From: an uncultured Bdellovibrionales bacterium
GTDB lineage: Bacteria; Patescibacteriota; Minisyncoccia; Moranbacterales; UBA1568
DNA: 42,141 nt
Reading direction: 5' to 3'
NCBI GenBank assembly: GCA_964550545.1
Contig: CAZJZN010000002.1
Location: forward strand, 1 to 42,141
Every line of letters begins with the position of its first letter. Position 1 is the stretch's first letter. Shown here piece after piece: positions 10,888-27,187 of the stretch. Below the pieces are notes generated by a model. The model had not been told where the DNA came from, did not search any database, and saw only the letters and a list, made by a program, of their open reading frames with translations. Made by a program: the position numbers and the translations under genes.

Positions 10888-10966
10888 CCAGACTCCACCA
10901 GCTAAACATTTCATCTCTACAAACGAAACTCGTAGAGTGCTCTTTCTCAAGCACGTGGGACCTGGG

Positions 10967-10995: not shown

Positions 10996-12435
10996 TTACA
11001 AATAGAAGCGCGGAAGGATGACATCTATGGTGAGATAGAGTGAAAAGAAAAAGAGAAGGAGAACGCTGCCTAAGAGGATATTTTTGAAGTATTCTCGTTT
11101 TCCGAAAAGCATACCGAGTCCGACCATGACGAGGATGAAGTGGGTTGCGAGATTGGGGAGAAAGTAACGTCCCGGCGTGCCGAGTTCGATCGAACCGATC
11201 GCGTGGAACACATTCCAGTCCGCGAGGCGGATGCCGAGTTGGAGCGCGATGATCATGGCAATGAGGAAGAAAATGAATTTCTTCTCGGGTAAGAAATCGG
11301 GTTTGTTTCTTGTAAAGAGAAAGAGGATGAGTCCGATCACGGAGACTGCCTGAATCGGCCAGAGGATAGTGGTGAGATTGTTGACGATGAGGTCGTCATT
11401 CCACCCGAGCGATCCCCAGTACGTGCGCGAGGAGAGTGCGAAGCGTCCCGGCGTGAGGCTCTTGTCGAGATAGTCGCCAAATGAAAGGATCGTTTCGGTG
11501 GCGGATCCTTTGAATGGGAGAAATTCCGAGAGCGAGTATTTCGTTTCAAGCAGGGAATTGGCAATGAAGAACACGCCGGCGAACAGTGTCGCGGAGAGGA
11601 GAATTTTCTTAGGATTTTTGGCTTTCTTGAAGAGATGGAATCCGACAAGTCCCAGGAAGACAACGAAAAGGATGACCGCTGTTCCTTTGGTAAAAACGCC
11701 GATTGCGATTGCGGTTATCATTATGGAAATATTCTTCCAATTGAGTCCGTCACGAAGACTCAAGACGGCACCCCAGGTAAAAAGGAAGAAGAGTGGGATG
11801 AGGAGCGCGTCGTAATTGATATTGGCGGTGTACATCGAAAATTTCGGTTGGAAGGCGACGAGCGCCGCGAAGAGCGTTGCGATGAATGAAGAAAACCCGA
11901 TCGCTCTCGCGATACAAAAGGCGAGGAGGACGGCGATTGTCCCCAGGAATACCGAGAAGATTCGAATCGAATAGAATCGGACGAGAATGTTTTCTCCGGC
12001 AAGCGCTTTTTCGATGGGAGCGGCAAGGGTGTGATAGAGGCTTCCGTTCACGACATCCGGATATTCAAAGAGAGTGTATGGTCGCCATTTTCGTTCGAGG
12101 ATGTCGCGCTCATTTTTCCCTTCGGAGCTCTCCGAAAAGTCCGTCGTATTGTAGAGACCGCTCCGGATATCGTTGATACCAGATGCCGTACCGGCATTCT
12201 GAATTTCTTCGGAGAAATTATAATCGGAGAATACGTCTCGGTTCGCTTTGGCTTTTCTGTCACTCTTTTCCCAATTTTTGTCCGTCGGCTCATTGATGTA
12301 CTGTACGGAATTGTAGTGTCGCGCCTCGTCTTGCCCGGTAAACATTGGAAAGAGCGTCGCCACAAAAACGCCCTTCAAGAAGAAGGTGACAAGGAGGAGG
12401 GAAAGGAGGAAGGCTGGCTTCTGGAAGATTCTCAT
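10996..12435 (-). CDS. Polytopic membrane protein, DUF2142/GT-C-like putative glycosyltransferase
   Basis: 479 aa. The first loop after TM1 carries PMFTGQDEARHYNS (a DE..H acidic motif as in PMT/DUF2142-type GT-C proteins). It is followed by a ~100-aa loop and more than 9 hydrophobic segments. Confidence 0.6.
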   Translation of the reverse strand: MRIFQKPAFLLSLLLVTFFLKGVFVATLFPMFTGQDEARHYNSVQYINEPTDKNWEKSDRKAKANRDVFSDYNFSEEIQNAGTASGINDIRSGLYNTTDFSESSEGKNERDILERKWRPYTLFEYPDVVNGSLYHTLAAPIEKALAGENILVRFYSIRIFSVFLGTIAVLLAFCIARAIGFSSFIATLFAALVAFQPKFSMYTANINYDALLIPLFFLFTWGAVLSLRDGLNWKNISIMITAIAIGVFTKGTAVILFVVFLGLVGFHLFKKAKNPKKILLSATLFAGVFFIANSLLETKYSLSEFLPFKGSATETILSFGDYLDKSLTPGRFALSSRTYWGSLGWNDDLIVNNLTTILWPIQAVSVIGLILFLFTRNKPDFLPEKKFIFFLIAMIIALQLGIRLADWNVFHAIGSIELGTPGRYFLPNLATHFILVMVGLGMLFGKREYFKNILLGSVLLLFFFSLYLTIDVILPRFYL

Positions 12436-12704: not shown

Positions 12705-13556
12705 ATGTTTATGAAAAAAAACCTTTACGAAAATATTTATAACAAAGCCGGTTATTTTAGTTTCGGGAAAAACTGGAGTGATTTTTTGGATTCCGCCTTT
12801 GACGAAAATCGACTTAATATTGCAAAGCAATCACTTATTGATTTTCTTGGTGGAGAAGAGAGAATTTCCGGAAAAACTTTCATTGATATCGGTTGCGGAA
12901 GCGGACTCTTTTCTTTGGCCGCGCTTCTTTTGGGGGCCAAAGAAGTAGTAAGTGTGGATATTGATGAAAATTCAGTTGCTTGTGCGCGTCGCTTACGGGA
13001 GAAGTTTCAGCAACTAAAAAATTGGAAAGTGCTTACCGGTTCAGCTTTGGACAAGGATTTTATTCTTTCTCTTGGTCAATTTGATATTGTTTACTCTTGG
13101 GGAGTGCTCCATCATACCGGAAATATGTATCAAGCTCTGGATAATGTAAGCAATCTTATGAAACCGGATGGAATTTTTTATCTCGCTCTTTACAATCGAT
13201 GTCGGAGTTGGTGGATTGGCACCTCCACGTTTTGGCTAAAGGTAAAAAAACTTTACAATCATTCGGGTGTTACCGGGAAAAGACTCATTTTTTATTGTTA
13301 TGTTGTTTATTTTTTTCTTGATTCTTTCATTGCTCTAAAAAATCCGTTCAAGCGCATGAAAGCCTTTAAGCGGCGCGGAATGAACTGGGAACACAATGTT
13401 ATTGATTGGCTCGGCGGGTATCCGTATGAGTTTGCTGGTCCCGATGAGATTGTGAATCATTTTTCTCCTCAAGAGATATTTTGCATAAAGATGACAAATT
13501 CTTATGGTCTTGCATGTGTTGAGTACCTGCTGCAAAAAATAAGCACAGTGAAATGA
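12705..13556 (+). CDS. Class I SAM-dependent methyltransferase
   Basis: Motif I FIDIGCGSGLFSLAALLLGAKEVVSVDID and post-I/II DIVYSWGVLHH are present. Confidence 0.85.
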   Translation: MFMKKNLYENIYNKAGYFSFGKNWSDFLDSAFDENRLNIAKQSLIDFLGGEERISGKTFIDIGCGSGLFSLAALLLGAKEVVSVDIDENSVACARRLREKFQQLKNWKVLTGSALDKDFILSLGQFDIVYSWGVLHHTGNMYQALDNVSNLMKPDGIFYLALYNRCRSWWIGTSTFWLKVKKLYNHSGVTGKRLIFYCYVVYFFLDSFIALKNPFKRMKAFKRRGMNWEHNVIDWLGGYPYEFAGPDEIVNHFSPQEIFCIKMTNSYGLACVEYLLQKISTVK

Positions 13557-14926
13557 AAATCATAATTTCTCTTTCTGATGGAATGGTTGAGAGGAATCTG
13601 TTGAAAACGGATTTTTGGTCGTATTTGACTCAGGAAAAAGAACTGGAAATAATATTGATTTCTTCGAGTAATGAATATTTCAATTATCTTGCAAAGCGCT
13701 ACGCTTCACCAATGGTGAAAGTTGTTTATGAACAATATTCTATTGGTTTAATTGATGCGTTTCTTTCATACCTTACAAGAAATAGTATTCATAGTTGTAC
13801 AATAAAGGAAGAGCAATATAGTCAGAGAAAGGGAATTAATGGGCAGAAAAAAAGATCATTTCTTACATACTGTTCTTTTCGTCTCTGTTGGTATTTGGGG
13901 AAGTACTATTGGTGGAGAAAATTTTTGAGATTTTTGTATCGACATCTGAGTTCTTGTGGATATGCGGAAAGCGTATTGAGAAGGGAAAAGCCGGATTTGG
14001 TTTTTGTTCCATCCATCAATCCATCTGATTACAAGATGATTTGGCAGGCAAGACGGCAGAATGTGCGCTGCGTCCAAATGATAAAGAGTTGGGACAATTT
14101 GAGTAGTAAAACCTTTATGGCTGTCCTTCCAGATTACCTTGTTGTTCATAATAAAATAATAAGAGACGAAGCGGTATATTATGGCGATATGCCAAAAGAT
14201 AAAATTTTTATTTCCGGCATACCACAGTTTGATTATCTGGTTTCCAAGCGGGACGAAATCCTCATAAATCGAGAGGAATTTTACGCTGATCTCGGCATTG
14301 ATTCTTCTCAGAAGGTCATACTTTTCTCAGCTTCCGGAGATAGGATTAGTCCTCATGATGGCGATTATCTTCTTATGCTTGATGAGGCTATAGTGTGCGG
14401 AAGTCTTCCCCATGATACGCACATACATGTTCGGTTGCATCCAAAATATGATAGCAACTTAAAAGGTGTTGAAAAATTGAAACACGTCACAGTTGAGAGA
14501 CCTTTTTCTTATTTAACTAAAGATCACAGGGATTGGGTATTTGAGGAAAAGGATATGAAGCGTTGGTATAATTCCCTTTTTCACAGTGCTATGGTGGTAA
14601 ATGTTGCCTCTACGATGGCTATCGATGCGGCAGTGGTCGAAAGGCCAATAATATCTTTGGGCTTTGATGGATATGGTAAACTTCCCCTGTCTCAATCCGT
14701 CTCTAGATACTATGACCGAGATCATTACAGAAATGTAATAAAGACTGATGCAGTCTTACTGGTTAGGAGCGAACAGGAGTTTATAAATGCTGTTCGCTGT
14801 TATCTCAAAAATCCTCTCCATAAGGAAAATAAACGGAGGAAGCTGGTTGAACAGCAGTGTTACAAAATTGATGGAAATGCTTCAAGCCGATTAGCTGATT
14901 TTCTTCTTAACTTAGTAAAGGGTTAG
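13553..14926 (+). CDS. Uncharacterised protein, paralog A (putative GT-B-like surface-carbohydrate biosynthesis enzyme)
   Basis: 457 aa with an ATGA overlap with the upstream gene. It is colinear and homologous to 16320..17672 (shared SWDN, PDYLVVHN, RDEAV, GIPQFD, IDAAV, YYDRDHYR, QQCYKIDGNASSRLADFLL). I recognise no named family with confidence. Confidence 0.7.
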   Translation: MKIIISLSDGMVERNLLKTDFWSYLTQEKELEIILISSSNEYFNYLAKRYASPMVKVVYEQYSIGLIDAFLSYLTRNSIHSCTIKEEQYSQRKGINGQKKRSFLTYCSFRLCWYLGKYYWWRKFLRFLYRHLSSCGYAESVLRREKPDLVFVPSINPSDYKMIWQARRQNVRCVQMIKSWDNLSSKTFMAVLPDYLVVHNKIIRDEAVYYGDMPKDKIFISGIPQFDYLVSKRDEILINREEFYADLGIDSSQKVILFSASGDRISPHDGDYLLMLDEAIVCGSLPHDTHIHVRLHPKYDSNLKGVEKLKHVTVERPFSYLTKDHRDWVFEEKDMKRWYNSLFHSAMVVNVASTMAIDAAVVERPIISLGFDGYGKLPLSQSVSRYYDRDHYRNVIKTDAVLLVRSEQEFINAVRCYLKNPLHKENKRRKLVEQQCYKIDGNASSRLADFLLNLVKG

Positions 14927-14929
14927 AAG

Positions 14930-16315
14930 ATGATTCATGAATTTTACAAAAGGTTGGCGATGGGGGAGGTAGTAAATAGCCTCTTTATTGTTGCAACAAA
15001 GCCATTGACGCTTATAAATTCACTCGTTGTCATAGGGCTTTTGAGTCTTCATGACTTTGGTGTGTACAGGCTTGTTATGTCTTTTCAGGCGTTAATTTCG
15101 GGATTCTCAATAAATTTTCTTGATAATCTCGTATTAAACGAAATGAATGTGCATCATGGTGAAAAACGGGCATTTAAGGCGAAGCGCATATTTGCAGAAT
15201 ACGTTGTATTAAAGGTGATCATCGGGGCAATTCTTACTGTCGGAGTGTTTTTTTTGGCTGATTTCATCGGGAGGTACTATGACTCAATGGAAGGTATAGG
15301 ATCGTGGATACGTATTATTTCATTTCTCTTCTTGATAGAAAATATTCATTCACTCGCCGTCACTTTTCTGCAGTATCGTCTTAATTTTTTTCTTTCGTCA
15401 TTTTATCTTTTTGCTTACGAAGGAGTGAAACTTATATTTATTCTCGCACTCTATTTTTTCGGAAATTTTGGAATTTCCGAAGTTCTCATACTTACAGTTT
15501 TTTCTCACCTGATAGTTTTTCCATTTGTCCTTATCCCGAGTTTTCGCGGATATTTTGAGAAAAGCGCGGGTGATTCCAAATCAGTTTCATCGGGATTCGG
15601 CTCACCCTTTGTTGCTCTGATACGGCAATGCGGATTTTGGACGGTAGCAAGATACTATCTTTTGAATTTTTCCCAAAATATTCGACCGTGGGTAGTGAAA
15701 TGGTTACTTGGGACGGAAGCAGTTGCGATATTCAGTGTGGCTTTGAGCTTTCTTGGGAGCTTAAAGAGTTTCATTTCTTTTAATTCGCTAAAAGTATACC
15801 TTCCAAGAGAATCTGGAAAAAGAGATCGGATGCGCGAGATTGTGTCGCGTGGAGGGAGGTATCTTACCTATGTTTTTTTCGCTCTATTTGTTTTTGGGAT
15901 TATTGCCGTTCCAATTGTGACAACGATATTTTTTCCGAAATACTGGTCATCCATGCCTCTTTTCTTTATTATGGCGGCATCAATGGTTTTTTTCGGCGTG
16001 TATACAATTTCCGGACAAATACTTTACTCTCTTCGGAGACAGAAGGATCTTTTTTTCGTGGCCATTGCAAGCGCTGTTTCAATGAGTATTTTTTCAATTA
16101 TTTTGATACCAGTCTTTGGTTTATACGGGGTTGCGCTTGAGTTTTTCTTGACTCAATTTGTTGCGCTTGCCGCTTCGCAATTTTTCCTCTTTCGGTATAA
16201 TTCAGAACTCAAATTTCAATGGAAAACCATGTTCATGTTTGATGAATATGATCGGGATCTCCTTCAAAAAGGAATAAAGTTTTTTAGGATGAAGGTTTTG
16301 AGGATGTCCTCGTAG
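14930..16315 (+). CDS. Wzx-like polysaccharide/oligosaccharide flippase (MOP superfamily)
   Basis: 461 aa with ~12 hydrophobic segments along the whole length. It has a typical Wzx size and sits within a glycan gene cluster. The assignment rests on architecture and context. Confidence 0.7.
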   Translation: MIHEFYKRLAMGEVVNSLFIVATKPLTLINSLVVIGLLSLHDFGVYRLVMSFQALISGFSINFLDNLVLNEMNVHHGEKRAFKAKRIFAEYVVLKVIIGAILTVGVFFLADFIGRYYDSMEGIGSWIRIISFLFLIENIHSLAVTFLQYRLNFFLSSFYLFAYEGVKLIFILALYFFGNFGISEVLILTVFSHLIVFPFVLIPSFRGYFEKSAGDSKSVSSGFGSPFVALIRQCGFWTVARYYLLNFSQNIRPWVVKWLLGTEAVAIFSVALSFLGSLKSFISFNSLKVYLPRESGKRDRMREIVSRGGRYLTYVFFALFVFGIIAVPIVTTIFFPKYWSSMPLFFIMAASMVFFGVYTISGQILYSLRRQKDLFFVAIASAVSMSIFSIILIPVFGLYGVALEFFLTQFVALAASQFFLFRYNSELKFQWKTMFMFDEYDRDLLQKGIKFFRMKVLRMSS

Positions 16316-16319
16316 CTCT

Positions 16320-17672
16320 ATGAAGACGATACTTATACCAATATTTCAAGGAGCCGAATCAAGAAGTATTTTGCGTACCGAAATTTTTCAGAAACTAAGA
16401 GCTGTTTCTGGTATCCGGATAGTTCTCCTTGTTCCAAATGAAGAGAAAAAGAAGTATTTCGGTTCCGAATTTTTTGGAGATAATGTTGTTTATGAGGTTG
16501 TCAAAAACTTTCAAGGGAATTTTTTTGACAAGGCCTTTACCTTTTTGAGGAAGAATCTTGTAAGAACGAATACGCTTCGTTTGAAAAGAAAGCAGGATTT
16601 TCTTTTGGGAGGAAATGCGGTGAAATATTTTTTTGAATGTATCTTTAGTTTCATTTTTGGAAGAAAGATGTGTAGGAAGGCGGTTCGATGGATTGATCAG
16701 AATCTTATTCCTGAAAAAGGGGCACAAAAGATATTTGATACTTTGATTCCAGATATTGTTTTGACTGCTCATATTTTTGGTGATATGGAAGCATCAATCT
16801 TAAAAGAAGCAAAAAAGCGAAGGATTAAGACTATCGGACTTATCAATTCGTGGGATAAAATTACTTCTCGCGGTATGGTGAGAGTTATCCCGGACAAACT
16901 TATCGTTCACAATGATACAATCAAAGACGAGGCAGTTCGTTTTATTGATATGTCACCGGATTCGGTATTTGTGCTTGGAATTCCGCAGGATGATGCTTTT
17001 TTTTCTTTTTATCCCAAAGATAAAGAGAAATTTTTTGGCTCTCTTGGAATTTCCACAGAAAAGAGAATACTTCTTATCTGTCCGATGGGAAAAACATACA
17101 GCGACGTCGACGCCGATATTATAAATGTAGTGACGAATTTTAAGGCGCAAGGACGTATTCCCGATGATCTCGCTATTTTGGTAAGATTTCCTCCAAATGA
17201 TAATATCGATGTATCCTTATTGAGAAATAAGGATTTGCTTGTATGGGAACAACCGGGTGTTCGTTTTGAGTCAACTCGCGGAATTGATTGGGACATGACT
17301 GAAATTGATGTTCAAAGGTTGGCATATACACTGCACTGTAGCGCTATGGTTATTTGTCCGCCGTCATCAATTTCTGTGGACGCGGCTATTTTTGATACCC
17401 CAATAATCAATATTCGCTTTGAAAGGTACGATCGTGAAAAGTTAAACATTAACGCTTACTATGAAATGGATCACTATCGTGCCATTGCTAAGACCGGCGG
17501 CATACGATTTGTTCAAGATGAAAACGAGCTATTGTTATGGATAAACAGATATGCGAACGATAGGAAACTTGATAGAATTGGCAGGAAAGAAATAGTTCGT
17601 CAACAGTGTCAATTTTTGGATGGGAAGTCCAGTTTTCGTATAGCGAATTTTGTGCTAGACTCGCTGGGTTAG
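16320..17672 (+). CDS. Uncharacterised protein, paralog B (putative GT-B-like surface-carbohydrate biosynthesis enzyme)
   Basis: 450 aa, full-length homolog of 13553..14926 (SWDK, PDKLIVHN, KDEAV, GIPQDD, VDAAI, YYEMDHYR, RQQCQFLDGKSSFRIANFVL). Confidence 0.7.
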   Translation: MKTILIPIFQGAESRSILRTEIFQKLRAVSGIRIVLLVPNEEKKKYFGSEFFGDNVVYEVVKNFQGNFFDKAFTFLRKNLVRTNTLRLKRKQDFLLGGNAVKYFFECIFSFIFGRKMCRKAVRWIDQNLIPEKGAQKIFDTLIPDIVLTAHIFGDMEASILKEAKKRRIKTIGLINSWDKITSRGMVRVIPDKLIVHNDTIKDEAVRFIDMSPDSVFVLGIPQDDAFFSFYPKDKEKFFGSLGISTEKRILLICPMGKTYSDVDADIINVVTNFKAQGRIPDDLAILVRFPPNDNIDVSLLRNKDLLVWEQPGVRFESTRGIDWDMTEIDVQRLAYTLHCSAMVICPPSSISVDAAIFDTPIINIRFERYDREKLNINAYYEMDHYRAIAKTGGIRFVQDENELLLWINRYANDRKLDRIGRKEIVRQQCQFLDGKSSFRIANFVLDSLG

Positions 17673-17765: not shown

Positions 17766-18608
17766 ATGAAAATTGGCATGACAATCAAGAGAGTCATTCT
17801 TTTAGACAAAGAGGGTGAAGAATTGGCGAGCTTTGAAAAAGGCGCTGAAAAAAAGCTCGCTTCTTCCGATATTTATCCTGCTGTGATAGAAAATTATTTT
17901 TGGGATACAGAAAAACAGACAGAAAGTGCGGAAAAATATAAAGATCAAATCAAACGCGTTTACTATCAGGATGAAGTGGATGAAAAGGTAAGGAATATGC
18001 TTCAGGATGATCTTCGGAGAATTGAATTGGTCAAAAGCTTCAATTATGGTGTTACTGTTTTAGAAGTTGGATGCAGTGACGGGACGGTGAGTATAAAAAT
18101 TGCTGAATTACCTCAAGTAAAAAAAGTGCTCGGAGTGGACATTAGAAAATCAGCTATCAAAGACGGAAAGGCACTTATCAAGGATCTTCTTAAGAGAGGT
18201 GAAATTGGAGAGGAAACCGCAAAAAAGGTACTGTTGCTACATTCGGCAACTGAAACATTGCCAGCAAAATACGGTCAATTTGATTCGGTGTGTGCTTATG
18301 AAATTTTTGAGCACCTAGCGCCTCAAGATATGTTGCCCGTCTTTCAAAACCTGTATAAATTTGTAAAAAAAGACGGAAACTTCTTTATTAGCGTCCCGAA
18401 TCGTTTTCCTCATAAGAAGTATGACGCGCTTGGTAGAAGCCGTTGGCGCTGGTTTGATCACAGAAACTTCTTCAGTAAGTTGAGCTTGGAGATATTTCTC
18501 AAAAATTTTTTTGAGAAAGTGAAATTTTATCCCCTGTACAAGGGAGAAGATGTGAGTGATAGCATTTATCTTATTTGTGAATGTAAAGGAAAAAAATATG
18601 AGATCTAA
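17766..18608 (+). CDS. Class I SAM-dependent methyltransferase
   Basis: Motif I VLEVGCSDGTVSIKIA and acidic loop VLGVDI are present. FDSVCAYEIFEHL is followed by DGNFFISVPN. Confidence 0.8.
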   Translation: MKIGMTIKRVILLDKEGEELASFEKGAEKKLASSDIYPAVIENYFWDTEKQTESAEKYKDQIKRVYYQDEVDEKVRNMLQDDLRRIELVKSFNYGVTVLEVGCSDGTVSIKIAELPQVKKVLGVDIRKSAIKDGKALIKDLLKRGEIGEETAKKVLLLHSATETLPAKYGQFDSVCAYEIFEHLAPQDMLPVFQNLYKFVKKDGNFFISVPNRFPHKKYDALGRSRWRWFDHRNFFSKLSLEIFLKNFFEKVKFYPLYKGEDVSDSIYLICECKGKKYEI

Positions 18609-19431
18609 AATTGTTGCAGAGGTAGCATCCTCTCATAACGGAAATATCGAGCTTGCCAAGGAAATGATTCGCGTTGCCGCTCGAACCGGAGTGGATATTG
18701 TTAAGTTTCAGTCATGGCAAAGCAAGAATGTTGATAAAGATGATCCCGATAAGAAGCGCTACCAATCTCTTGAACTTACTGATGAGGCTCACTTTATTTT
18801 AAAGGAAGAATGTGAACGGTTAGGAGTGGAATTTATGACGACCTGTTATGATGCTGGACGCATTCCGTTTCTCAAGGAATTGGGTCTGAAGAAAGTTAAA
18901 GTGGCAAGTACGGATTTGAAGCATTATAACTTTCTTCAAAAACTTCGTGATAATTTTGAATTCGTTGTTGCTTCTACCGGGATGTCAGAAAAGGATGAAA
19001 TTCTCAAGGCATTGGATATTTTGAGGCAAGGAGAGTACAGTATTATGCATTGCGTATCCATTTATCCCTGTCCTTTGGAAAAGGCGAATCTCCGAAAACT
19101 TCTGTGGTTGAAGTCGCTTTCTGACTCCGTTGGTTATTCCGATCATACCGAGGGTATCGAGGCGGCTGTTTTTGCGCTGGGAATGGGGGTGAATTATGTT
19201 GAAAAACATTTTACTTTGGATAAAAACATGGAACAAGTTCCTCATACTGTCGGAAAGGGGATGAAGCCGATCACAACTCATATGATTGCCAGCGAGCCGT
19301 TGGTGTTTAAGGAAATTTGCGAATGGCGAGATAAGCTCGTTACAGCCTTAGGGAGCGGAAGCCTGGAAATACTCCCAGAAGAAAAATTGACCAGGGAGAA
19401 ATATACTGGCAGACTCGGAAAGAACAATTGA
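18598..19431 (+). CDS. neuB: NeuB-family nonulosonic acid synthase homolog (TIM-barrel only; no C-terminal SAF domain)
   Basis: IVAEVASSHNGNIELAKEMIRVAARTGVDIVKFQ, VASTDL, STGMS, HCVSIYPCP, GYSDHTEG and EKHFTLDK match the NeuB/PseI/LegI core. The ATG at 18598 overlaps the upstream stop. The protein ends at 277 aa, where the SAF domain would normally begin. Confidence 0.82.
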   Translation: MRSKIVAEVASSHNGNIELAKEMIRVAARTGVDIVKFQSWQSKNVDKDDPDKKRYQSLELTDEAHFILKEECERLGVEFMTTCYDAGRIPFLKELGLKKVKVASTDLKHYNFLQKLRDNFEFVVASTGMSEKDEILKALDILRQGEYSIMHCVSIYPCPLEKANLRKLLWLKSLSDSVGYSDHTEGIEAAVFALGMGVNYVEKHFTLDKNMEQVPHTVGKGMKPITTHMIASEPLVFKEICEWRDKLVTALGSGSLEILPEEKLTREKYTGRLGKNN

Positions 19432-19432: not shown

Positions 19433-20617
19433 ATGTCAGAGAAAAAAAAGCGAAAAATTTGTTTTGTTATTACCAGCTTTATACACTACAGTCGGAATTT
19501 TTTGATATTGGAAGAACTTAATAAGAGAAATGATGTTGATTTACATATCGTCTTGGGTGGGGTGGTATTGTCCAGTAAGTATGCTTCACATACTTTTAAT
19601 GTGAGAAGCATACTTGAGAGTGAGCGTTTCGAGAATATTCATGAAATTTATTTCAATCTTGAGGGAGATCATCATATCGTGAAAGCAAAGACAGTCGGTT
19701 TCGGTATTGTGGAGTTTTCCTCGCTTCTTTACGCTATTCATCCAGATTTGTTGGTTGTAAGAGGCGATCGTTTTGAAGTGCTCGCAGCTGTGATTGCTGC
19801 CGCATATATGAATATTCCCATTGCTCACATTGAAGGTGGAGATGTGAGCGGAACACTCGATGAATCGGTTCGGCACGCGATAACAAAACTCTCGCACATA
19901 CATTTCGCCACTAATGAACCGGCAAGAGAAAGACTTCTCAAAATGGGGGAAAAGAAAGAGTTAGTATTTAATTTCGGCAGTCCGGATATTGAGGTGGTAG
20001 CACGAGCTGAAACGTGGAAATTAAATATGGCGAGTATTGATTTTGAAAATTTTGGGAGCGGAGCTCAATTCGATCCGAAAGAGGAGTATTTGATGGTTAT
20101 GTATCATCCGGTGAACACGGAGTACGAGCTTCTTTCGGGACACACAAAAAGTTTGCTCGATGCGGTGTATAAACTGAATAAGCAAGTGCTTTGGTTTTGG
20201 CCGAATTTTGATGCTGGGTCAGAGTATATTTCGCATGAATTGAGAATCTTTAAAGAAAGGACATCCCAGCATAAGATTAAGTTTTTGCGATATCTTCCCC
20301 CTAAACAGTTTTTGTCTCTTCTTGCGAATACCCGGTGTTTGATTGGGAATTCTTCCGCCGGAATAAAAGAATGCTCTTACCTTGGAATTCCGGTAGTGAA
20401 TATCGGGACCCGGCAAAATAAACGTTTGCGAGCAGAAAATGTGATGGATTGCAATAATGATACTAAAGAAATTTTCAATATAATCGGGGAGCAGTTACGT
20501 GTAGGGAGATATCCGGTCTCTCATTTGTATGCCTCGAATGATACGAGTAGGGAAATTGCAACTGTTTTGGCGGAAGTGGATCTTTATACACAAAAAGCTT
20601 TCACGGATTATCCGTGA
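19433..20617 (+). CDS. neuC: UDP-N-acetylglucosamine 2-epimerase (hydrolysing), NeuC-like
   Basis: GDRFEVLAAVIAAAYMNIPIAHIEGGDVSGTLDESVRHAITKLSHIHF is the hallmark 2-epimerase core. It starts 1 nt after the neuB stop. Confidence 0.85.
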   Translation: MSEKKKRKICFVITSFIHYSRNFLILEELNKRNDVDLHIVLGGVVLSSKYASHTFNVRSILESERFENIHEIYFNLEGDHHIVKAKTVGFGIVEFSSLLYAIHPDLLVVRGDRFEVLAAVIAAAYMNIPIAHIEGGDVSGTLDESVRHAITKLSHIHFATNEPARERLLKMGEKKELVFNFGSPDIEVVARAETWKLNMASIDFENFGSGAQFDPKEEYLMVMYHPVNTEYELLSGHTKSLLDAVYKLNKQVLWFWPNFDAGSEYISHELRIFKERTSQHKIKFLRYLPPKQFLSLLANTRCLIGNSSAGIKECSYLGIPVVNIGTRQNKRLRAENVMDCNNDTKEIFNIIGEQLRVGRYPVSHLYASNDTSREIATVLAEVDLYTQKAFTDYP

Positions 20618-20678: not shown

Positions 20679-21395
20679 ATGGACAAAAAAATATTGGCGG
20701 TTATTACCGCTCGGGGAGGATCAAAGGGTGTGCCTGGGAAAAATATCAAACTTCTTGGCGGAAGACCATTGCTTGCTTATTCAATTGAAATAGCTCGTAA
20801 GAGTCGTTTAATCACCGATCTTATTCTTTCGACTGATGATGAAGCAATTGCGTCGATTGGCCGCGAGTGGGGTATCGATGTTCCATTTCTTCGTCCAGCG
20901 GAACTTGCTACCGACACAGCTGGACATGTTGATGTAATGCAACATGCCGTTCGTTTTATGGAGGAAAGAAACGGAATGCAATACTATGGCGTCGTTATCC
21001 TTCAGCCAACATCTCCTTTTCGGCTGGTGGAGGATATTGATGAGGCGCTCAAAAAATTCGTTAATTCCGGTGCGGATAGCGCAGTAAGCGTAGTGGAATT
21101 GGAGGGAGATCACCCGATAAAAATAAAAAAAATGGAAGGAGATCGGGTACTTCCATATTGTTTTCCGGAACCGGAAGGCGTGCGAAGACAAGACTTGTCC
21201 GTAGCTTACAAAAGAAGTGGCGCGGTGTATGTAGTGAGGAGAAGTGTGCTAATGGAACAAGGAAAAATTTTTGGGGAGTACGTGGTGGGACACATTATTC
21301 CGAAAGAGAGATCGATTGATATTGATACCGAATTTGATTGGTTGAAGGCGGAATATATGTTTAAGAAACTTCAAGAAAAAGAACTTTTTGTTTAG
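20679..21395 (+). CDS. neuA: CMP-N-acylneuraminate (nonulosonate) cytidylyltransferase, NeuA-like
   Basis: The ATG at 20679 gives MDKKILAVITARGGSKGVPGKNIKLLGGRPLLAYSIE, the canonical CMP-NulO/CMP-Kdo synthetase N-terminus. LQPTSPFR is also present. The ORF-track extension from 20529 overlaps neuC and is rejected. Confidence 0.87.
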   Translation: MDKKILAVITARGGSKGVPGKNIKLLGGRPLLAYSIEIARKSRLITDLILSTDDEAIASIGREWGIDVPFLRPAELATDTAGHVDVMQHAVRFMEERNGMQYYGVVILQPTSPFRLVEDIDEALKKFVNSGADSAVSVVELEGDHPIKIKKMEGDRVLPYCFPEPEGVRRQDLSVAYKRSGAVYVVRRSVLMEQGKIFGEYVVGHIIPKERSIDIDTEFDWLKAEYMFKKLQEKELFV

Positions 21396-21462: not shown

Positions 21463-22569
21463 TCATTTGGACGAAGAGAAAAGTTTCTCGTATTTTATAA
21501 TACCCGTATTTTTGTCGAAATATTTCTTTGCCGTTGTGTGGGCATTTCGTGAAAGAACATGCCAATTTGTTTCATTCTGGCTTTGTAAAATTTCCGACAT
21601 ATGGGTGATGTCTTTTGCAATTGCGCCGCATTGATTTGTCTCGATGATTGCGTCGAAATTGAGAAAGGAGAGAACTGGAGTGCCATGCTTGAGAGATTCC
21701 AGAATCGTATTTGGAAATCCTTCGTTCTCTGATGTGACGATGAGAAACGATGATTGGAGATAGAGCGACTTCAAATCGTGCGCAGAGGCTCCGGGAATGA
21801 ATGTGATGTTTGATATTTTTTGCACCCTTTCTCTTGTCTTTTCAAAAATTATACTGTTTGTTTTTGGCATCACCATGGTAAAATGCCATTCCGGAAACAG
21901 GAGCGCTAGGTCGATAAGTAAGTGCGGTCGCTTGAAAGGTTCGGAACGCCCAACCCAAATGGCGTTTTTTTGGAAGTGTCTTGCTTGGCGGGGTGGAATT
22001 TCTTGAAAATTTCTGATAGTGATAACATCCCCTCGATAGTGGGGAAATGTATTGAAAAAGAGAGAGCGATCTTCTTCGTTCTGCAGGATGAATGTGTCAA
22101 TAAGGTTGATTAAGCGAAAGAAAATTTTTCCATACAGCGTTCGATTGAGCGAACCGTCAATATTCCGTATATGCGAACTTTTAACAATGATTCTTGAGCG
22201 TGTAATTTTTCCCAAAAGAAGAATCTCTACCGTTTGCCAACTGACACCTTTTGTAAATAAAACCGCAGGGGAAATGTGGAGAAGAATTGTTGCCAATCTG
22301 AAAAAGTTTTGTGCAGAGGTTATAATATTGCCACTATTTTTCTTCTGACCTCTGTGGAGAGTAATTTCGCGCACGATTTCTGTTTTTTTCTGTTGACCGA
22401 AGTCTCCCACAATAAAGTGAACGTCGAACAATTTTTTGTCTAAAGATGTTGCGATGGAGTAAGTGTCAATCTCCGCACCTCCATACGCTGGATTTTCATC
22501 GGGAAAAAACAAGGGATATGCTCCCAAAAGAATAAATGTGATGCGTTGTTTTTTTTTGGCATTATTCAT
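21463..22569 (-). CDS. Glycosyltransferase family 4-like
   Basis: C-terminal ENEGFPNTILESLKHGTPVLS (E-x7-E) and N-terminal AYGGAEIDTY are present. 368 aa. Confidence 0.8.
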   Translation of the reverse strand: MNNAKKKQRITFILLGAYPLFFPDENPAYGGAEIDTYSIATSLDKKLFDVHFIVGDFGQQKKTEIVREITLHRGQKKNSGNIITSAQNFFRLATILLHISPAVLFTKGVSWQTVEILLLGKITRSRIIVKSSHIRNIDGSLNRTLYGKIFFRLINLIDTFILQNEEDRSLFFNTFPHYRGDVITIRNFQEIPPRQARHFQKNAIWVGRSEPFKRPHLLIDLALLFPEWHFTMVMPKTNSIIFEKTRERVQKISNITFIPGASAHDLKSLYLQSSFLIVTSENEGFPNTILESLKHGTPVLSFLNFDAIIETNQCGAIAKDITHMSEILQSQNETNWHVLSRNAHTTAKKYFDKNTGIIKYEKLFSSSK

Positions 22570-23230
22570 ATTCGGCTACTGCCCAAATCTCTCCAAATTG
22601 AATGGAGTATTTTTTTATGTGTAATCCCGCAAGATCGAGTTCTTTTTTGAAGGAAGCGAATGTATATTCGGTATAGTGTGTATTATCAAGTCGCCACACT
22701 GCGCCGATACTCTCTTTGTACAGGGTAAGCCAATCCCTGTCTATCATGGGAACCCTGATGAGAAATTTTTTTGAGAGCGGTCTTATTCTGTGGAGAAATT
22801 CAACTCGGTTCTCGATATGTTCCAGAACGTTGCTCAGTATGATGGCATTAAAGGTTGTTTTAAATGTGTATTTGGTCGCATCTCCACATATGAATTGAAC
22901 ATTCTTGTGGGAACAATCTTTTCGAGCCTTCTGTATGCTTCTGTTTAATATATCGATCCCAATAATTTCTCGAGCCTTTTTTGAAAGGTCTCGGGTTACA
23001 ATTCCGTTTCCGCAACCAACATCAAGCACGGTATCATTCGCCGTTATGTTTTCCAAGAAGAAATCGTGATATTTCATGATTTCATGTTTTGGACTTATCC
23101 CATGGTTGATTCGAGTGGCAAGCTGACCGATGAGGAAATACATAAAACTGTGAATGTTGCAGAGAGTTTTAATGATGAGTTTCATCATAAGATTTGAAGA
23201 TTTTAATATATTCATCAACTGATGCATCAA
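22562..23230 (-). CDS. Class I SAM-dependent methyltransferase
   Basis: Motif I VLDVGCGNGIVTRDL, then IGIDI and FNAIILSNVLEHI. The first codon at 23230 is TTG. ATG candidates at 23227, 23188 and 23185 are equally possible, so the start is ambiguous. Confidence 0.78.
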   Translation of the reverse strand: MMHQLMNILKSSNLMMKLIIKTLCNIHSFMYFLIGQLATRINHGISPKHEIMKYHDFFLENITANDTVLDVGCGNGIVTRDLSKKAREIIGIDILNRSIQKARKDCSHKNVQFICGDATKYTFKTTFNAIILSNVLEHIENRVEFLHRIRPLSKKFLIRVPMIDRDWLTLYKESIGAVWRLDNTHYTEYTFASFKKELDLAGLHIKKYSIQFGEIWAVAEYE

Positions 23231-24188
23231 GATGGAATCTTTTTTCGGCTACAAGTCGAGAGGATTCTTTATATTGCTTCAAATTTGGGATGATATTTTC
23301 TATGGAGCGTGAAAAATCATTAAAAGATTCACTTGTAAATGGATAAGAGTCCCTAAAGGGATTATGCTGTTTTGCCTTTACGACATATCCGTTATAACCT
23401 GAAGTAATCAATTCGTTAATGCTTCCGCGTTCGAAAGCGATAACGGGAAGCCCTGCCGCCATGGCTTCGATGACACTGTTGGGACAGGCGGATTGGTCGG
23501 AGAAGAGGAAAATATCGTACTCGATGATTTTTTGGAGGAGATTCTCGTTTGAAAGTTTCCCATGGAAATGAATGTTTGGAATATTTTCAGGATTTGAGAA
23601 TATGGATTTCAGATTATTCGTATAGGTTCCGTAAATATCGAAAGAATAATCTCTTGGCTCGAGGAGCTTTACGGACTCGATAAGTGGCTTGATTTGATCT
23701 TTGCGGCGGAATTGACCAAAAGTGAGAAGTTTTATAGGAGCGCTTTCTTGTTGCCCTTTTTCGTTTGGTCTGATCTTTTCCGTATCAACGCCGTTGTAAA
23801 TGACAGTCCAGTTCTTTTTTTTCTTACGACAAATTGTTTCCCATGCTGATTTGCTGTAGTGGCTTTGATATACGACGAAATCTGCGAAATAATTGTGGAT
23901 GATTTTTATCTTGAGGTTATACAGCCAGTACAGTTTTCCAACGGAGGATGATGAAGTATAGATGCCGTCGAGGCGTTGAATGATTCTTTTTTTCAAAATC
24001 TTTGCTATGAAGAGCGATTGAAAATATTGCGAAAGTGGACAATCACCGACAATGAAAAGTATGTCAAAATCGAAGGAAAAATCCCGTGAGACGGACAATC
24101 CTTTTTTTTCAACGGCAGTGGAAAATTTTTTCACAAAAGTCGCTGTGCCGCCGATATCTTTTATTTTGAAAGGGATGAAAATTTTCAT
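23169..24188 (-). CDS. Glycosyltransferase family 4-like
   Basis: GT-B architecture with the C-terminal motif DQSACPNSVIEAMAAGLPVIAFERGS. ATGA overlap with the upstream GT2. Confidence 0.8.
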   Translation of the reverse strand: MKIFIPFKIKDIGGTATFVKKFSTAVEKKGLSVSRDFSFDFDILFIVGDCPLSQYFQSLFIAKILKKRIIQRLDGIYTSSSSVGKLYWLYNLKIKIIHNYFADFVVYQSHYSKSAWETICRKKKKNWTVIYNGVDTEKIRPNEKGQQESAPIKLLTFGQFRRKDQIKPLIESVKLLEPRDYSFDIYGTYTNNLKSIFSNPENIPNIHFHGKLSNENLLQKIIEYDIFLFSDQSACPNSVIEAMAAGLPVIAFERGSINELITSGYNGYVVKAKQHNPFRDSYPFTSESFNDFSRSIENIIPNLKQYKESSRLVAEKRFHLDASVDEYIKIFKSYDETHH

Positions 24189-24970
24189 AGAAACTTTCGT
24201 TTCAAATCTTTGATAAAACCGGGCGTGAGAATGACCGCGAGCGGTTCGAGGAGGAATCGGTATTCAAGCGGTGAACGGTGCAATTTTTTGATATAGCGAA
24301 TCTGTGTTTTTATGCACTGGTGCATTTGTTCGTTTTGGTGGTCGAACGAGAGACCGCTGTTCGCGTTTCTGTGGCACAGAAATTCTTGCAGATTATGATA
24401 GCGAGTTTTGGGTGATACGCGAAGCCAGAGTTCATAGTCTTGTCCGTAGTGCAACCGTTCATCATAATTTCCTGCATCTCGGATGAGGGGCGTCCGAAAC
24501 ATGACAGAGCTGTGCGCGAATGGATTTCTTCGTATAAGGGATCGTTTGATACTCTCATCGGACTCGGGGCATCGTACCGGATATCCGATGTCGTTTTTTT
24601 CGTTTCGATAATTACATCCCACAATGCCATGATCGGGATGTGCTTCTAAGAAGGCGATTTGCTTCTCAAGCTTTGAAGGTTCCCACCAATCATCACCGTC
24701 AATACGCGCGGTGTATGGTTCGGTAATGTTCGAGAGACCTTTGTTGAGCGATTTCGTAAGTCCGAGATTGTGCGTATTTTTTACAAGAAAAAACTTCTCT
24801 GAACCGAATGTCAATTGCCATTTCTTGAGTTTTGCAAATGTCCTGTCGGTTGAGTGATCATCAATCGCGATGATTCTGAAATCTTGAAATGTCTGCGCAA
24901 GGATACTCTCGAAGGCTTTGTCGAGGGTCGTTTCGGAATTATGGAGGGAGATGAGAATCGCGCATTTCAT
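24185..24970 (-). CDS. Glycosyltransferase family 2
   Basis: ILISLHNSETTLDKAFESILAQTFQDFRIIAIDDHSTDRT and the DxD region ARIDGDDWWEP form the canonical GT-A N-terminal domain. Confidence 0.88.
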   Translation of the reverse strand: MKCAILISLHNSETTLDKAFESILAQTFQDFRIIAIDDHSTDRTFAKLKKWQLTFGSEKFFLVKNTHNLGLTKSLNKGLSNITEPYTARIDGDDWWEPSKLEKQIAFLEAHPDHGIVGCNYRNEKNDIGYPVRCPESDESIKRSLIRRNPFAHSSVMFRTPLIRDAGNYDERLHYGQDYELWLRVSPKTRYHNLQEFLCHRNANSGLSFDHQNEQMHQCIKTQIRYIKKLHRSPLEYRFLLEPLAVILTPGFIKDLKRKFL

Positions 24971-26100
24971 AGCGAATGGAGAAAGTGGGAAAGTCTATCA
25001 ATCGAAAGCCGGATGGAATAGTGTTCTTGAATGAAGTTTCGTGCCGCATTTCCATAGAATCTTCGTTTCTCGGGATTCGAAATGAGGATTTGGACCGACG
25101 TTGTGATTTCTTTGGTATTTTTCGTAGGTACAAGCATGCCTGTTTTTCCGTTTTCCACGAGCTCGCGATTTTCCGAAATATCGGTTGTGATGACGGGGAG
25201 CCCTGCGGCCATGGCCTCCATGACAGCATTGCTCATGCCTTCAAAGAGCGTCGGGAGAACAAAGCAATCAGAAATTTTGAGAAGCTGTGGGACATCCGTG
25301 CGGCGACCGAGGAAGTGTATGTTTTCTTTGGACTGGTAGCTTTCAATCTGTTGTTCAAGGTTTTTTCGTTCGGTGCCGTCGCCGACCAAGAGGAGTTTCA
25401 AATTCAATGTATTAATGGCTGGTATAGTTTCATTGTTGGGAGAATAGAGGGATTCAAAGGCTTCGAGGAGGTAGCGATGGCCCTTGTTGGAGTGGAGGTT
25501 CCCAACACAGATGATGACGAAATCGTCGGGATTAAGACCGAAAGTTTCGCGGAGCTTTGAATTTGGCTGAATGCTATTGAAAAACTCCACATCAACACCG
25601 GTTGATATTGTGGTGATTTTTTCTTTTGGTACCTCGATTTTGTTTACATAGAAATTTTCTACTGCTGGGGAGTTGGCAAGGTACTGTCGAGCGTATTTTT
25701 TGGTGATTTTCTCAAATATTCTGGCAGGCCAATATTTTGAATGATTGTAGGTTGTTCCGAGAAACGGGATGATTGGCGCGGACACCTTCTTTTGAAGGAG
25801 GAGTCGCCCGATCGCATCCGCATGGAAGAGATAGGTGATGATAACATTGGGAGCAAACTGACGAACTTCCATAAATAGCCTTTCGTATCCTGCGATATCA
25901 AAAAAACCCTTCCAGTGCACAGTGGTCACGGAAATATTCTTTTCTGAGAACTTAGGGGCAAGTTCCCCAAGTTCGCGAAGGGTTATAATATGATTCTCGA
26001 ACTCGTCCGCGAGGAGCGGAAGAAGTCGGAGAAGCGCGTTTTCCCACCCGCCGTTTCCGAGCGATTGGATGATATGGAGGACTTTTTTTTTATTTCGCAT
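24967..26100 (-). CDS. Glycosyltransferase family 4
   Basis: The ATG at 26100 gives MRNKKKVLHIIQSLGNGGWENALLRLL, a typical GT4 start. The E-x7-E motif is LFEGMSNAVMEAMAAGLPVITTD. The 47-aa extension in the ORF track overlaps the upstream gene and is rejected. Confidence 0.85.
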   Translation of the reverse strand: MRNKKKVLHIIQSLGNGGWENALLRLLPLLADEFENHIITLRELGELAPKFSEKNISVTTVHWKGFFDIAGYERLFMEVRQFAPNVIITYLFHADAIGRLLLQKKVSAPIIPFLGTTYNHSKYWPARIFEKITKKYARQYLANSPAVENFYVNKIEVPKEKITTISTGVDVEFFNSIQPNSKLRETFGLNPDDFVIICVGNLHSNKGHRYLLEAFESLYSPNNETIPAINTLNLKLLLVGDGTERKNLEQQIESYQSKENIHFLGRRTDVPQLLKISDCFVLPTLFEGMSNAVMEAMAAGLPVITTDISENRELVENGKTGMLVPTKNTKEITTSVQILISNPEKRRFYGNAARNFIQEHYSIRLSIDRLSHFLHSL

Positions 26101-27187
26101 ATATTCCGATACAGGTGATGCCAGCTTCCGGATGTTCGTGAGCGCGGATAGTATTGAGGCGGGCGCTCCGGAACCATTGCTCGACCTCCTCTCGGTAGTA
26201 GTAGTTGCTTTTCGGGGTCGCGAGGACGTCGAAGGCGTCATTCAATTTCATATTGAAGGGGAAATTTTCGTAGTACGAGAAAGGGAATTTCGACGCGAGT
26301 CCGTCGAGGCCGATCTTTCGAAGGAGTTTTGCCTTGAGGTTGATGAGGTGCACGATGCCTCCGGGTATATAACAGAGCTTGAAGAGGATCGGCTTCGGGA
26401 GATGGCGAAGCATCGCGCGGAGCGGTTCATAGAGGTAGAGCGCGCGGGCGTTCTTGCGGCGATTGTAGACCCAGATGAGCATTTCCCCACCCTCCTTGAG
26501 AGTTTTGGGGAGGCGCGAGAATCCTTCTTGGGGTTTGGGGAGGTGGTGGAGGACGCCGATCGAGTAGGAGAGATCGAAGGTTTTCTCGAATGGCATATGA
26601 TAGATATCCGCCTGGACGATTGCCGCATTCGGGATGTCCTTGGTCATTTCGTAGGCGACTTCGACGGTTTCGCCCAAGTCGCTTCCGAAAGCGACTTCCG
26701 CGCCGGAGAGCGCCGCCCACTTGGTGAAGCGTCCGGATCCGCATCCGATATCAAGAGTTTTCTTTCCTTTGATATTTTTTTCCGTCACAAATGGACCCGA
26801 GAAATGGAAGAAATTTTGCTTTTCGTAGTCGTTTTCCTTGTAGATATATTTCCACTCATACGCGAAGCTCTCCGCCGTTTTCTTCTGGTGTTTCCAAAAC
26901 CGATTGAGATCGGGGATGGCATCGATGGCGGATTGCCATTCTTTTGCGACAGACGCCGGAAGCGCCGCGCGGTGTTTTTTGAAAAACTCCTGATGCGTTT
27001 GGAGGAGATTCACCTTGAGTTTCCCCGTGAGGAGTCGCGGAATGCCGTTTATGATCGGATACCAATGCTTGTCACTCGCGAGAACACCGGAAATGATATG
27101 ATCGCCGGATGTTTCGAATGTTTCCGAAAGTGATATCGAAGCAAGCGTCTCCGGATCCCGAAGGAAAGGAATGTGAACAGTTCTCAT
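26090..27187 (-). CDS. SAM-dependent methyltransferase with an N-terminal Trm112-like domain
   Basis: The N-terminus GVLASDKHWYPIINGIPRLL resembles the Trm112/YbaR beta-zinc-ribbon-like segment without cysteines. Motif I is TLDIGCGSGRFTKWAALSGAEVAFGSD, and IGVLHHLP follows. Confidence 0.8.
   Translation of the reverse strand: MRTVHIPFLRDPETLASISLSETFETSGDHIISGVLASDKHWYPIINGIPRLLTGKLKVNLLQTHQEFFKKHRAALPASVAKEWQSAIDAIPDLNRFWKHQKKTAESFAYEWKYIYKENDYEKQNFFHFSGPFVTEKNIKGKKTLDIGCGSGRFTKWAALSGAEVAFGSDLGETVEVAYEMTKDIPNAAIVQADIYHMPFEKTFDLSYSIGVLHHLPKPQEGFSRLPKTLKEGGEMLIWVYNRRKNARALYLYEPLRAMLRHLPKPILFKLCYIPGGIVHLINLKAKLLRKIGLDGLASKFPFSYYENFPFNMKLNDAFDVLATPKSNYYYREEVEQWFRSARLNTIRAHEHPEAGITCIGIYAK

Follow-up and report, generated by a model that had tools for sequence, protein, structure and literature searches.

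Locus and gene content

The enzymes that attach bacterial nonulosonic acids (NulO; sialic, legionaminic and pseudaminic acids) represent a recognised gap, as the genes for biosynthesis are easy to find and the transferases are mostly unknown. Here we describe two paralogous genes, in the following termed A and B, from an uncultured bacterium listed as Bdellovibrionales and placed by GTDB in the Patescibacteriota (Minisyncoccia; Moranbacterales; UBA1568). The window is the whole stretch of DNA that was analysed, namely positions 1 to 42,141 (42,141 nucleotides) of the forward strand of contig CAZJZN010000002.1 in assembly GCA_964550545.1. Based on sequence comparison, A and B belong to a large, uncharacterised and divergent branch of the TagF-like superfamily, and their best reading is that of peripheral-membrane enzymes with a glycosyltransferase (GT) fold of type GT-B. 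On balance, though only just, we favour the view that at least A is a transferase dependent on NulO activated with cytidine monophosphate (CMP).

The open reading frames (ORFs) of the operon and its immediate flanks are given below, including those of S-adenosylmethionine (SAM)-dependent enzymes. L001 denotes a related locus (GCA_013565695.1) that repeats the whole arrangement of the window gene for gene.

13553..14926, + strand: paralog A (457 aa), 'RxHP' subtype; TagF-like protein with a GT-B fold and candidate transferase dependent on CMP-NulO
16320..17672, + strand: paralog B (450 aa), 'RxPP' subtype; TagF-like protein with a GT-B fold and the second transferase candidate
12705..13556, + strand: SAM-dependent methyltransferase at the head of the operon (Pfam Methyltransf_31/12/11, E 1e-15 to 1e-17; ortholog at the same position in L001)
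14930..16315, + strand: Wzx-type polysaccharide flippase, multi-pass membrane protein (PF01943 Polysacc_synt, 29.5 bits, a narrow pass of the cut-off of 28.2)
17766..18608, + strand: second SAM-dependent methyltransferase (Pfam Methyltransf_23/25/12; position conserved in L001)
18598..19431, + strand: NeuB-family nonulosonate synthase (PF03102, E 2e-52; best NCBIfam model TIGR03569, 194 bits, below cut-off)
19433..20617, + strand: NeuC, hydrolysing uridine diphosphate N-acetylglucosamine (UDP-GlcNAc) 2-epimerase (TIGR03568, 337.5 bits against a cut-off of 235.9; PF02350, E 3e-64)
20679..21395, + strand: CMP-nonulosonate synthetase, NeuA/PseF-like (PF02348, E 4e-19; TIGR03584, 175.6 bits, below cut-off)
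10996..12435, - strand: GT-C type (PMT_2-like) integral membrane glycosyltransferase, divergently oriented upstream (PF13231, E 2e-8, and PF02366; ortholog at the same place in L001)
21463..26241, - strand: convergent block of GT1-like, methyltransferase, GT1-like, GT2 and GT4 genes (Pfam matches; same block in L001)

BLASTP aligns A and B end to end with 27% identity and 52% positives over 454 columns (E 8e-59), a paralogy far beyond chance. Every shared block listed by the first-pass annotation of this DNA recurs in the alignment, given here as A / B: IKSWDNL / INSWDKI, PDYLVVHN / PDKLIVHN, RDEAV / KDEAV, GIPQFD / GIPQDD, IDAAV / VDAAI, YYDRDHYR / YYEMDHYR, QQCYKIDGNASSRLADF / RQQCQFLDGKSSFRIANF and VRLHPKY / VRFPPND. 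Both ORFs are exact as annotated, and the description of the two proteins as colinear homologs over their full length is borne out by this single alignment. The Pfam and NCBIfam matches likewise agree with the statement that the pair brackets a Wzx-like flippase upstream of neuB-neuC-neuA, a methyltransferase gene lying between B and neuB.

Placement in the TagF-like superfamily

The first-pass annotation did not assign A and B to TagF, a position that has to be revised. Both proteins exceed the gathering threshold of PF04464 (TagF-like, Glyphos_transf; 22.1 bits), A with 38.6 and B with 31.2 bits, the match covering only profile positions 136-366 of 367, i.e. the C-terminal two thirds (residues 194-452 of A). 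Alignment of the A-family profile by hhalign to six canonical TagF-like sequences (TarL, TarF and relatives from Gram-positive bacteria, Bacteroidota and Streptomyces plasmids) yields a probability of 99.1% (E 4.4e-18). In a hidden Markov model (HMM) search of sequences in the PDB, a profile of 59 family members found TarL (8VA1) at E 2.7e-4 and no other meaningful match; single-sequence phmmer searches of A and B against PDB sequences returned nothing meaningful. The C-terminal motifs GxP(R/Q)xD, (K/R)xHP, S-S/T...E/D, FD and DGxSxR are colinear with those of TagF and TarL, the pairs (family, then canonical) being GIPQxD and GVPRTD, RLHP and KMHP, S-T-M..D and S-S-L..E, FDG and FDLE, and DGxSxR and DGxSSxR.

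HMM support for membership of A or B in the PseG, MurG or KpsC/S families was absent, in line with what had been stated earlier for KpsC/S and MurG. The Pfam models considered for sialyltransferases of families GT38, GT42, GT52 and GT80 (PF07388, PF07922, PF11477, PF06002) and for KpsC/KpsS (PF05159 Capsule_synth) gave no match to A or B at E <= 0.1. These families and the Maf family were also absent from the approximately 30 other scanned ORFs of the window at E <= 0.001-0.01, and the claim that no recognisable sialyltransferase is present holds for the ORFs scanned. The NCBIfam scan matched NF046086 (BFO_1060 family) with 40.4 bits for A (E 2e-10) and 31.1 bits for B (E 1.3e-7), against a cut-off of 200 bits, and also TIGR04396, a model named 'surface carbohydrate biosynthesis protein'. 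The picture is the same for distant homologs, P0066-P0071 scoring 29-36 bits against NF046086.

A full HMMER scan of 1.84 billion representatives (clusters at 50% identity) returned 11,913 proteins at E <= 1e-3, of which 2,603 reach E <= 1e-30. Almost all homologs with a name come from Patescibacteria (Parcubacteria/Paceibacteria lineages), and the nearest relatives are metagenome-assembled genomes (MAGs) labelled Patescibacteria or Parcubacteria, one of them Bdellovibrionales. For B, more than 189 homologs share 37-54% identity, and tblastn of A against plasmids gave a single match, in Rhizobium. At NCBI the homologs are named hypothetical or 'CDP-glycerol glycerophosphotransferase family protein' (CDP, cytidine diphosphate). 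In the literature library searched, no paper was found tying Patescibacteria or the candidate phyla radiation to nonulosonic or sialic acids, describing this family, or relevant on TIGR04396.

Conserved residues

Two invariant histidines define the TagF-like family by function; in TarL they are H300, which is stacked on W299 and acts as catalytic base, and H433 in the motif 'MHP', which contacts the alpha-phosphate (PMC10901376). Mutation of H300 or H433 abolishes activity (PMC10901376; also cited in PMC5974469). In TagF the corresponding pair is H444 and H584. Among 191 aligned members of the family studied here, no histidine of the N-domain is conserved, the first histidine of TagF being absent. 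The counterpart of TarL H433 varies, 76 members having Pro, 61 His and 46 Gln, with His in A and Pro in B. The flanks of this variable position are conserved (preceding Arg in 186 members, following Pro in 187). Ser-Trp-Asp is essentially invariant (Trp in 190, Asp in all 191). Invariant residues of A are W180, D181, G222, D227, R294, P297, H391, R428, D440 and G441; H391 occurs in 190/191 members and R446 is likewise near-invariant. B retains all family invariants and differs from A at the His of 'HP'. Missing from both is PT(F/W)R, which follows the first strand of the C-domain and is conserved in all six canonical sequences as APTFR or APTWR, the aligned residues being SASGD in A and CPMGK in B. 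The role of this motif is presumably phosphate binding.

The Trp-Asp pair follows the strand just before the first confidently aligned strand, as Trp-His does in TarL. Alignment of Trp-Asp to the Trp-His of TagF by hhalign (global, local and sub-region) did not succeed, being confident only from PDYLVVHN onward, with a probability of at most 1% upstream. Since sequence methods leave this region unaligned, we infer the exchange of the His base for an Asp base from strand order. Elements aligning with the cytidine-nucleotide site are kept and residues that define the chemistry are changed, which is the pattern expected if the donor were still a cytidine nucleotide and the transferred group were different. 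For comparison, in GT-B sialyltransferases the His of the HP motif contacts the CMP phosphate, and D/E-D/E-G carries the catalytic Asp of the N-domain.

Fold and membrane association

AlphaFold2 models of A (pLDDT 95.8, pTM 0.92) and B (pLDDT 93.0, pTM 0.91) display two Rossmann domains with the same order of secondary-structure elements. Foldseek against the PDB lists UDP-GlcNAc 2-epimerases, NeuC, MshA and GT4 enzymes for both models (E ~1e-13 to 1e-10, template modelling (TM) score 0.5-0.7). For the predicted structures this confirms a GT-B fold and does not discriminate between a TagF-like and a sialyltransferase function.

No transmembrane helix was found in A or B. The N-domain contains a helical insertion (residues ~60-146), rich in aromatic residues and with a net charge of +10, which includes a strongly amphipathic helix (hydrophobic moment 0.63). 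In this it matches the monotopic anchors by which TagF and TarL are described to associate with the membrane (PMC10901376).

Association with nonulosonic acid genes

Genes of NulO biosynthesis recur around the family. Within +-10 kb, NeuA-like genes are found in 50/82, NeuB-like genes in 45/82 and NeuC-like genes in 26/82 related loci. If the count is restricted to the 34 loci with a length of 18 kb or more, NeuA or NeuB is present in 29 and both are present in 22. NeuA/B/C-like genes account for 11% of all ORFs in related loci; in a 20-kb piece picked at random from a ~1-Mb genome, one would expect to meet such a gene in only a few percent of cases (an estimate, not a computed value). Further recurrent neighbours are methyltransferases, GT4/GT1 and GT2 enzymes, 4,6-dehydratases/epimerases, short-chain dehydrogenases/reductases, GFO/IDH/MocA oxidoreductases, DegT aminotransferases, HAD phosphatases, Wzx (a Wzx-like neighbour in 24 related loci), Wzy/O-antigen ligase and deacetylases, all of which are functions of glycan or NulO pathways. 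No family is met more often beside the TagF-like genes than the methyltransferases (61/83 loci), a hint at methylated sugars.

The canonical tarL genes taken for comparison adjoin tarI and tarJ. BLAST of TarI and TarJ against 1235 neighbourhood ORFs of the present family gave no clear homolog, with a weak TarI match to an NTP_transferase gene in 6 loci. CDP-polyol cytidylyltransferase families were absent among the scanned neighbour families and window ORFs, with no search aimed at TagD.

The linkage reaches beyond the Patescibacteria. Of eight contexts of distant homologs (17-26% identity) or their proteobacterial relatives, mostly from other phyla, 6/8 place the gene directly beside neuB/neuC/neuA. 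They comprise a plasmid of Rhizobium sp. WL3 (L083), Polaromonas sp. YR568, Herbaspirillum sp., a Rickettsiales MAG (L096) and two metagenome contigs (L090, with the order Wzz-NeuB-NeuC-NeuA-homolog-Wzy, and L093). The co-occurrence with neuA/neuB that had been suggested as a check was thus found to be strong, in 29/34 long loci and in 6/8 distant contexts.

Several of these loci hold further genes of possible interest. Two sulfotransferases directly follow the homolog in L096, which also has a second neuA, and four more uncharacterised ORFs of 450-510 aa lie upstream of neuB in L083. L003 and L059, both from the Parcubacteria genome Gr01-1014_3, contain three family paralogs among genes for acyl carrier protein, AMP-ligase, phosphopantetheinyl transferase and formyltransferase, together with radical SAM, transaldolase-like, SIS and NTP-transferase genes and NeuC/NeuA. 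This gene set looks like an elaborate pathway for an acylated or otherwise modified NulO or heptose.

Paralog subtypes

In 83 loci 152 members were counted, and 2-4 paralogs per locus are common. Loci with one copy mostly carry the His type (26 loci), and loci with several copies mix the three types (His, Pro, Gln). A Pro-type and a Gln-type gene frequently lie side by side, in many loci in the order Pro-type, then Gln-type. The top representative matches are proteins of ~900 aa with two family domains in tandem (P0194-P0198), which implies that the paralogs work together in some way. Adjacency of Pro- and Gln-type genes and the tandem fusions point to obligate cooperation between subtypes. 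Examples of pairing or fusion are P0194-P0198 and loci L017, L034, L040, L048, L055 and L062.

The first-pass annotation had proposed that HP in A marks a catalytic subunit and FPP in B a diverged one. This was not sustained by the conservation data, as the position is occupied by Pro, His or Gln across the family and B keeps the family invariants; a pair of catalytic and degenerate subunits was rejected on these grounds, together with the signature of the B subtype. This signature, VRF(P/Q)PND, is itself conserved in a well-populated subtype, which, with the invariants kept, marks B as a conserved subtype and not a decayed copy. A complex between A and B is conceivable. Linkage to NeuA or NeuB within 5 kb differs between subtypes, being 18/25 for the His type, 11/22 for the Pro type and 4/11 for the Gln type. 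A is therefore the stronger candidate for a NulO transferase, as the His type is most tightly linked to these genes.

Proposed function and mechanism

The GT-B fold, the linkage to NulO genes across phyla and the lack of a classical sialyltransferase among the scanned ORFs of the window make A and B reasonable candidates for NulO transfer. To this extent the first-pass annotation, which named them as orphan candidates for NulO transfer, remains plausible, but they are less orphan than it assumed, being a branch of TagF-like proteins with a precedent in Tannerella (see below). On three points raised with that annotation (a profile match to a non-transferase family, association with NulO genes, and a GT-B or other fold) the results came out in favour of the hypothesis.

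From homology, fold, conservation pattern and gene linkage we infer the following mechanism. NeuC, NeuB and NeuA would provide a CMP-activated nonulosonate, most likely of the N-acetylneuraminic acid (Neu5Ac) type and possibly methylated by the flanking methyltransferases. The Neu5Ac type is suggested by the NeuC-NeuB-NeuA trio occurring in a window without a DegT aminotransferase or an identifiable dehydratase of the pseudaminic acid (Pse) or legionaminic acid (Leg) type. The enzymes of the GT1/GT2/GT4 block probably build the acceptor glycan, a lipid-linked oligosaccharide. A and B, anchored by the amphipathic insertion, would transfer NulO onto this acceptor at the cytoplasmic face of the membrane. 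The catalytic base is proposed to be D181, the invariant Asp of Ser-Trp-Asp, taking the place of the Trp-His base of TagF; it would be the same kind of Asp base as in GT-B sialyltransferases. The C-terminal Rossmann domain would bind the cytidine nucleotide through elements in common with TarL, namely R-x-[H/P/Q]-P, S-T/S, the acidic residue 358 and the DG..R tail. B, as a conserved functional paralog, is likely to attach a further residue or to form another type of linkage. Flipping of the product would fall to the Wzx protein, whose gene lies between those of A and B, and the GT-C (PMT_2-like) enzyme may use the flipped glycan, this enzyme or a ligase moving it to the final acceptor.

Comparison with known systems

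The closest functional precedent comes from Tannerella forsythia, where Tanf_01245 and TFUB4_00887 encode TagB-like GT-B proteins; when these are deleted, the S-layer O-glycan loses its terminal Pse or Leg derivative (PMC5420450). BFO_1060 is the homolog of both in strain FDC 92A2 (PMC5420450). In view of these knockouts, NulO transfer on a TagB/TagF-like scaffold is a known and genetically supported kind of activity. The present proteins resemble the BFO_1060 family as TagB-like GT-B proteins encoded with NulO genes, the HMM similarity, significant if weak, spanning SWD and GIPQxD, and for both a CMP-NulO donor and a lipid-linked glycan acceptor are proposed. The Tannerella enzymes have been described with DXD, D/E-D/E-G and HP motifs (PMC5420450), whereas here HP is variable and a literal D/E-D/E-G is missing. 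With scores far below 200 bits, the present family is a separate, much larger and uncharacterised relative of the BFO_1060 enzymes.

TagF, TagB, TarL and TarF (PF04464; structures 3L7I-M, 8VA1) share with A and B the Pfam and profile homology, the GT-B fold and the occurrence of paralog pairs; monotopic membrane association via basic amphipathic helices is predicted here as well. Unlike TagF, the family does not conserve the Trp-His base and the second invariant His and lacks PT(F/W)R, and A and B come without the N-terminal polymerase domain and are linked to genes of CMP-NulO synthesis, not to tagD or tarIJ.

GT-B sialyltransferases (GT80 PmST1, GT52 NST/Lst, GT38 polysialyltransferases) are similar in fold, in the proposed CMP-sugar donor and in a possible Asp base of the N-domain, and Arg-x-His-Pro occurs in A and in roughly a third of family members. 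On the other hand, A and B are not members of their Pfam families, none of these enzymes is among the top 50 structural matches, and most members here lack the His of HP. The closest solved structures are UDP-GlcNAc 2-epimerases (WecB/MnaA/NeuC, PF02350), compact GT-B proteins with TM scores of 0.55-0.7, yet A and B fall below the Pfam threshold and differ from them in the catalytic constellation, the membrane-binding insertion and the C-terminal motifs of TagF type.

Alternative explanations

Several observations weigh against a role of A and B in NulO transfer. SpsB of Bacillus subtilis, a TagB-like protein beside the Leg genes, is not needed for Leg on spores (PMC7439481). By description it resembles the present case, standing next to a NulO pathway (the sps legionaminic-acid operon) and having been proposed as the NulO transferase by the same reasoning, and it is a cautionary precedent in which inference from the neighbourhood failed. 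Two of the eight distant contexts (L091, L092) have no NulO genes nearby, and about 15% of the long loci lack one within 10 kb. KpsC/S-like (Capsule_synth) ORFs in the Rhizobium (L083) and Rickettsiales (L096) loci could be the transferases of NulO or Kdo there. NulO genes may merely be common in such glycan islands, and the family could add another residue of the same glycan. As to the active site, the equivalence of Trp-Asp and the Trp-His of TagF is drawn from strand order, a literal D/E-D/E-G is absent from A and B (the invariant S-W-D(N/K) follows an N-domain strand), and the HP histidine, important in known sialyltransferases, is missing in most family members including B. The Foldseek top 50, headed by UDP-GlcNAc 2-epimerases and GT4 enzymes, includes neither a sialyltransferase nor TagF.

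These points leave room for other functions. The one we take most seriously, although we consider it unlikely, is that A and B are GT-B glycosyltransferases that add a residue other than NulO, such as a hexose, a phospho-sugar or an acceptor sugar, another unrecognised enzyme transferring the NulO. The islands are rich in sugar-modifying genes and hold several nucleotide-sugar pathways, some loci lack NulO genes, and 2-4 paralogs of different subtypes in one locus cannot all perform the same step; the weaker NeuA/B linkage of the Pro and Gln types (11/22 and 4/11, against 18/25 for the His type) fits this as well. However, in compact loci outside the Patescibacteria (L090, L093, Herbaspirillum) a single member stands right after neuA with few other glycosyltransferases, the C-domain elements aligning with the CDP-binding motifs of TarL fit a cytidine nucleotide donor, and the window offers no other sialyltransferase candidate. 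Quite improbable, in our judgement, is a true polyol-phosphate transferase of TagF type, with the CDP-polyol made elsewhere in the genome, a teichoic-acid-like element in the NulO polymer, and A and B acting as primase and polymerase. The PF04464 scores, the profile match of 99.1% to TarL/TarF, the database name of the homologs, the membrane-binding insertion and the paralog pairs typical of TagB/TagF would all agree with such a function. What speaks against it is that neither of the invariant, essential histidines of TagB, TagF and TarL is conserved (one is absent, the other varies between His, Pro and Gln), that PT(F/W)R is absent and the Pfam match is confined to the C-terminal two thirds of the domain, and that neither the window nor, with one weak exception, some 80 neighbourhoods hold a gene of TagD/TarI/TarJ type (TagD without a direct search), whereas canonical tarL genes adjoin tarI and tarJ.

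Least credible of all, and very improbable to our mind, is a non-transferase, i.e. a GT-B protein of epimerase or hydrolase type that acts on a nucleotide sugar within the NulO pathway, as do UDP-GlcNAc 2-epimerase, NeuC and PseG. Most of the Foldseek top 50 for both models are indeed UDP-GlcNAc 2-epimerases including NeuC (E ~1e-13 to 1e-10), and B weakly matches Pfam Epimerase_2 (E 0.007). That match amounts to 15.7 bits against a cut-off of 30.6, though, and A has none; epimerases are the GT-B fold in its minimal form and come up for any compact query of this fold. The TagF-like sequence homology is much stronger, the locus already has a bona fide NeuC, and a lipid-linked acceptor would agree with both the membrane-binding insertion and the location next to Wzx.

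Returning to A as a CMP-NulO-dependent transferase, a wider proposal may be put forward, which we regard as speculative and hold with less than even confidence. The family would be a large unrecognised group of glycosyltransferases derived from TagF-like phosphotransferases by an exchange of Trp-His for Trp-Asp, using CMP-nonulosonate donors and systematically mis-annotated as CDP-glycerol glycerophosphotransferases. It would provide the main sialylation route of ultra-small Patescibacteria and of several Proteobacteria, and the pairs of His, Pro and Gln types and the ~900-aa fusions would be multi-step or polymerising NulO transferases. If the family does attach NulO, it would constitute a new family of glycosyltransferases, thousands of proteins annotated as 'CDP-glycerol glycerophosphotransferase' would have to be renamed, and evolution would be seen to have turned a phosphotransferase scaffold to glycosyl transfer. 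It would also mean that the surface of Patescibacteria, whose way of life is attachment to other cells, bears sugars of the sialic acid type. The hypothesis is directly testable, because homologs adjoin neuBCA in cultured Rhizobium, Polaromonas and Herbaspirillum.

The operon and its surroundings

The genes from the first methyltransferase to B are tightly packed, which suggests one operon: the stop of the methyltransferase overlaps the start of A by 4 nt, and gaps of 3 nt and 4 nt separate A from Wzx and Wzx from B. Mechanical ORF calls probably over-extend the starts of NeuB and NeuA. For NeuB, called from 18556, the likely start is the ATG at 18598 (MRSKIV...), the L001 ortholog having 277 aa; for NeuA, called from 20529, it is the ATG at 20679 (MDKKIL...), with 239 aa in the L001 ortholog. 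No SAF domain was seen in the NeuB of the window or in its L001 ortholog, and the proteobacterial NeuB neighbours carry one.

The methyltransferase-A-Wzx-B-methyltransferase-neuBCA genes and the convergent GT block are spanned by an island of low GC content at ~12.6-25 kb (GC 0.36-0.42, against ~0.5 in the flanks). As the island coincides with operon and GT block, this suggests horizontal acquisition of the whole glycan module. Four SAM methyltransferases lie within the glycan island of the window (12705-13556, 17766-18608, 22562-23230 on the - strand and 26090-27187 on the - strand).

Sizeable ORFs of the glycan region (150-698 aa) without a Pfam match at E <= 0.001 are located on the - strand at 4119-7774, 10117-10950 and 30320-32416. 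The segment 33653-41634 (- strand) encodes a GH94 protein of 1130 aa (cellobiose/chitobiose phosphorylase or cyclic-glucan-synthase type) and a protein of 1502 aa with a C-terminal glucoamylase-like domain. At the other end of the window, positions 155-1289 (+ strand) hold two small type IV pilin-like ORFs with the prokaryotic N-terminal methylation motif, which are adjoined by a class II aminoacyl-tRNA synthetase gene (1548-2789).

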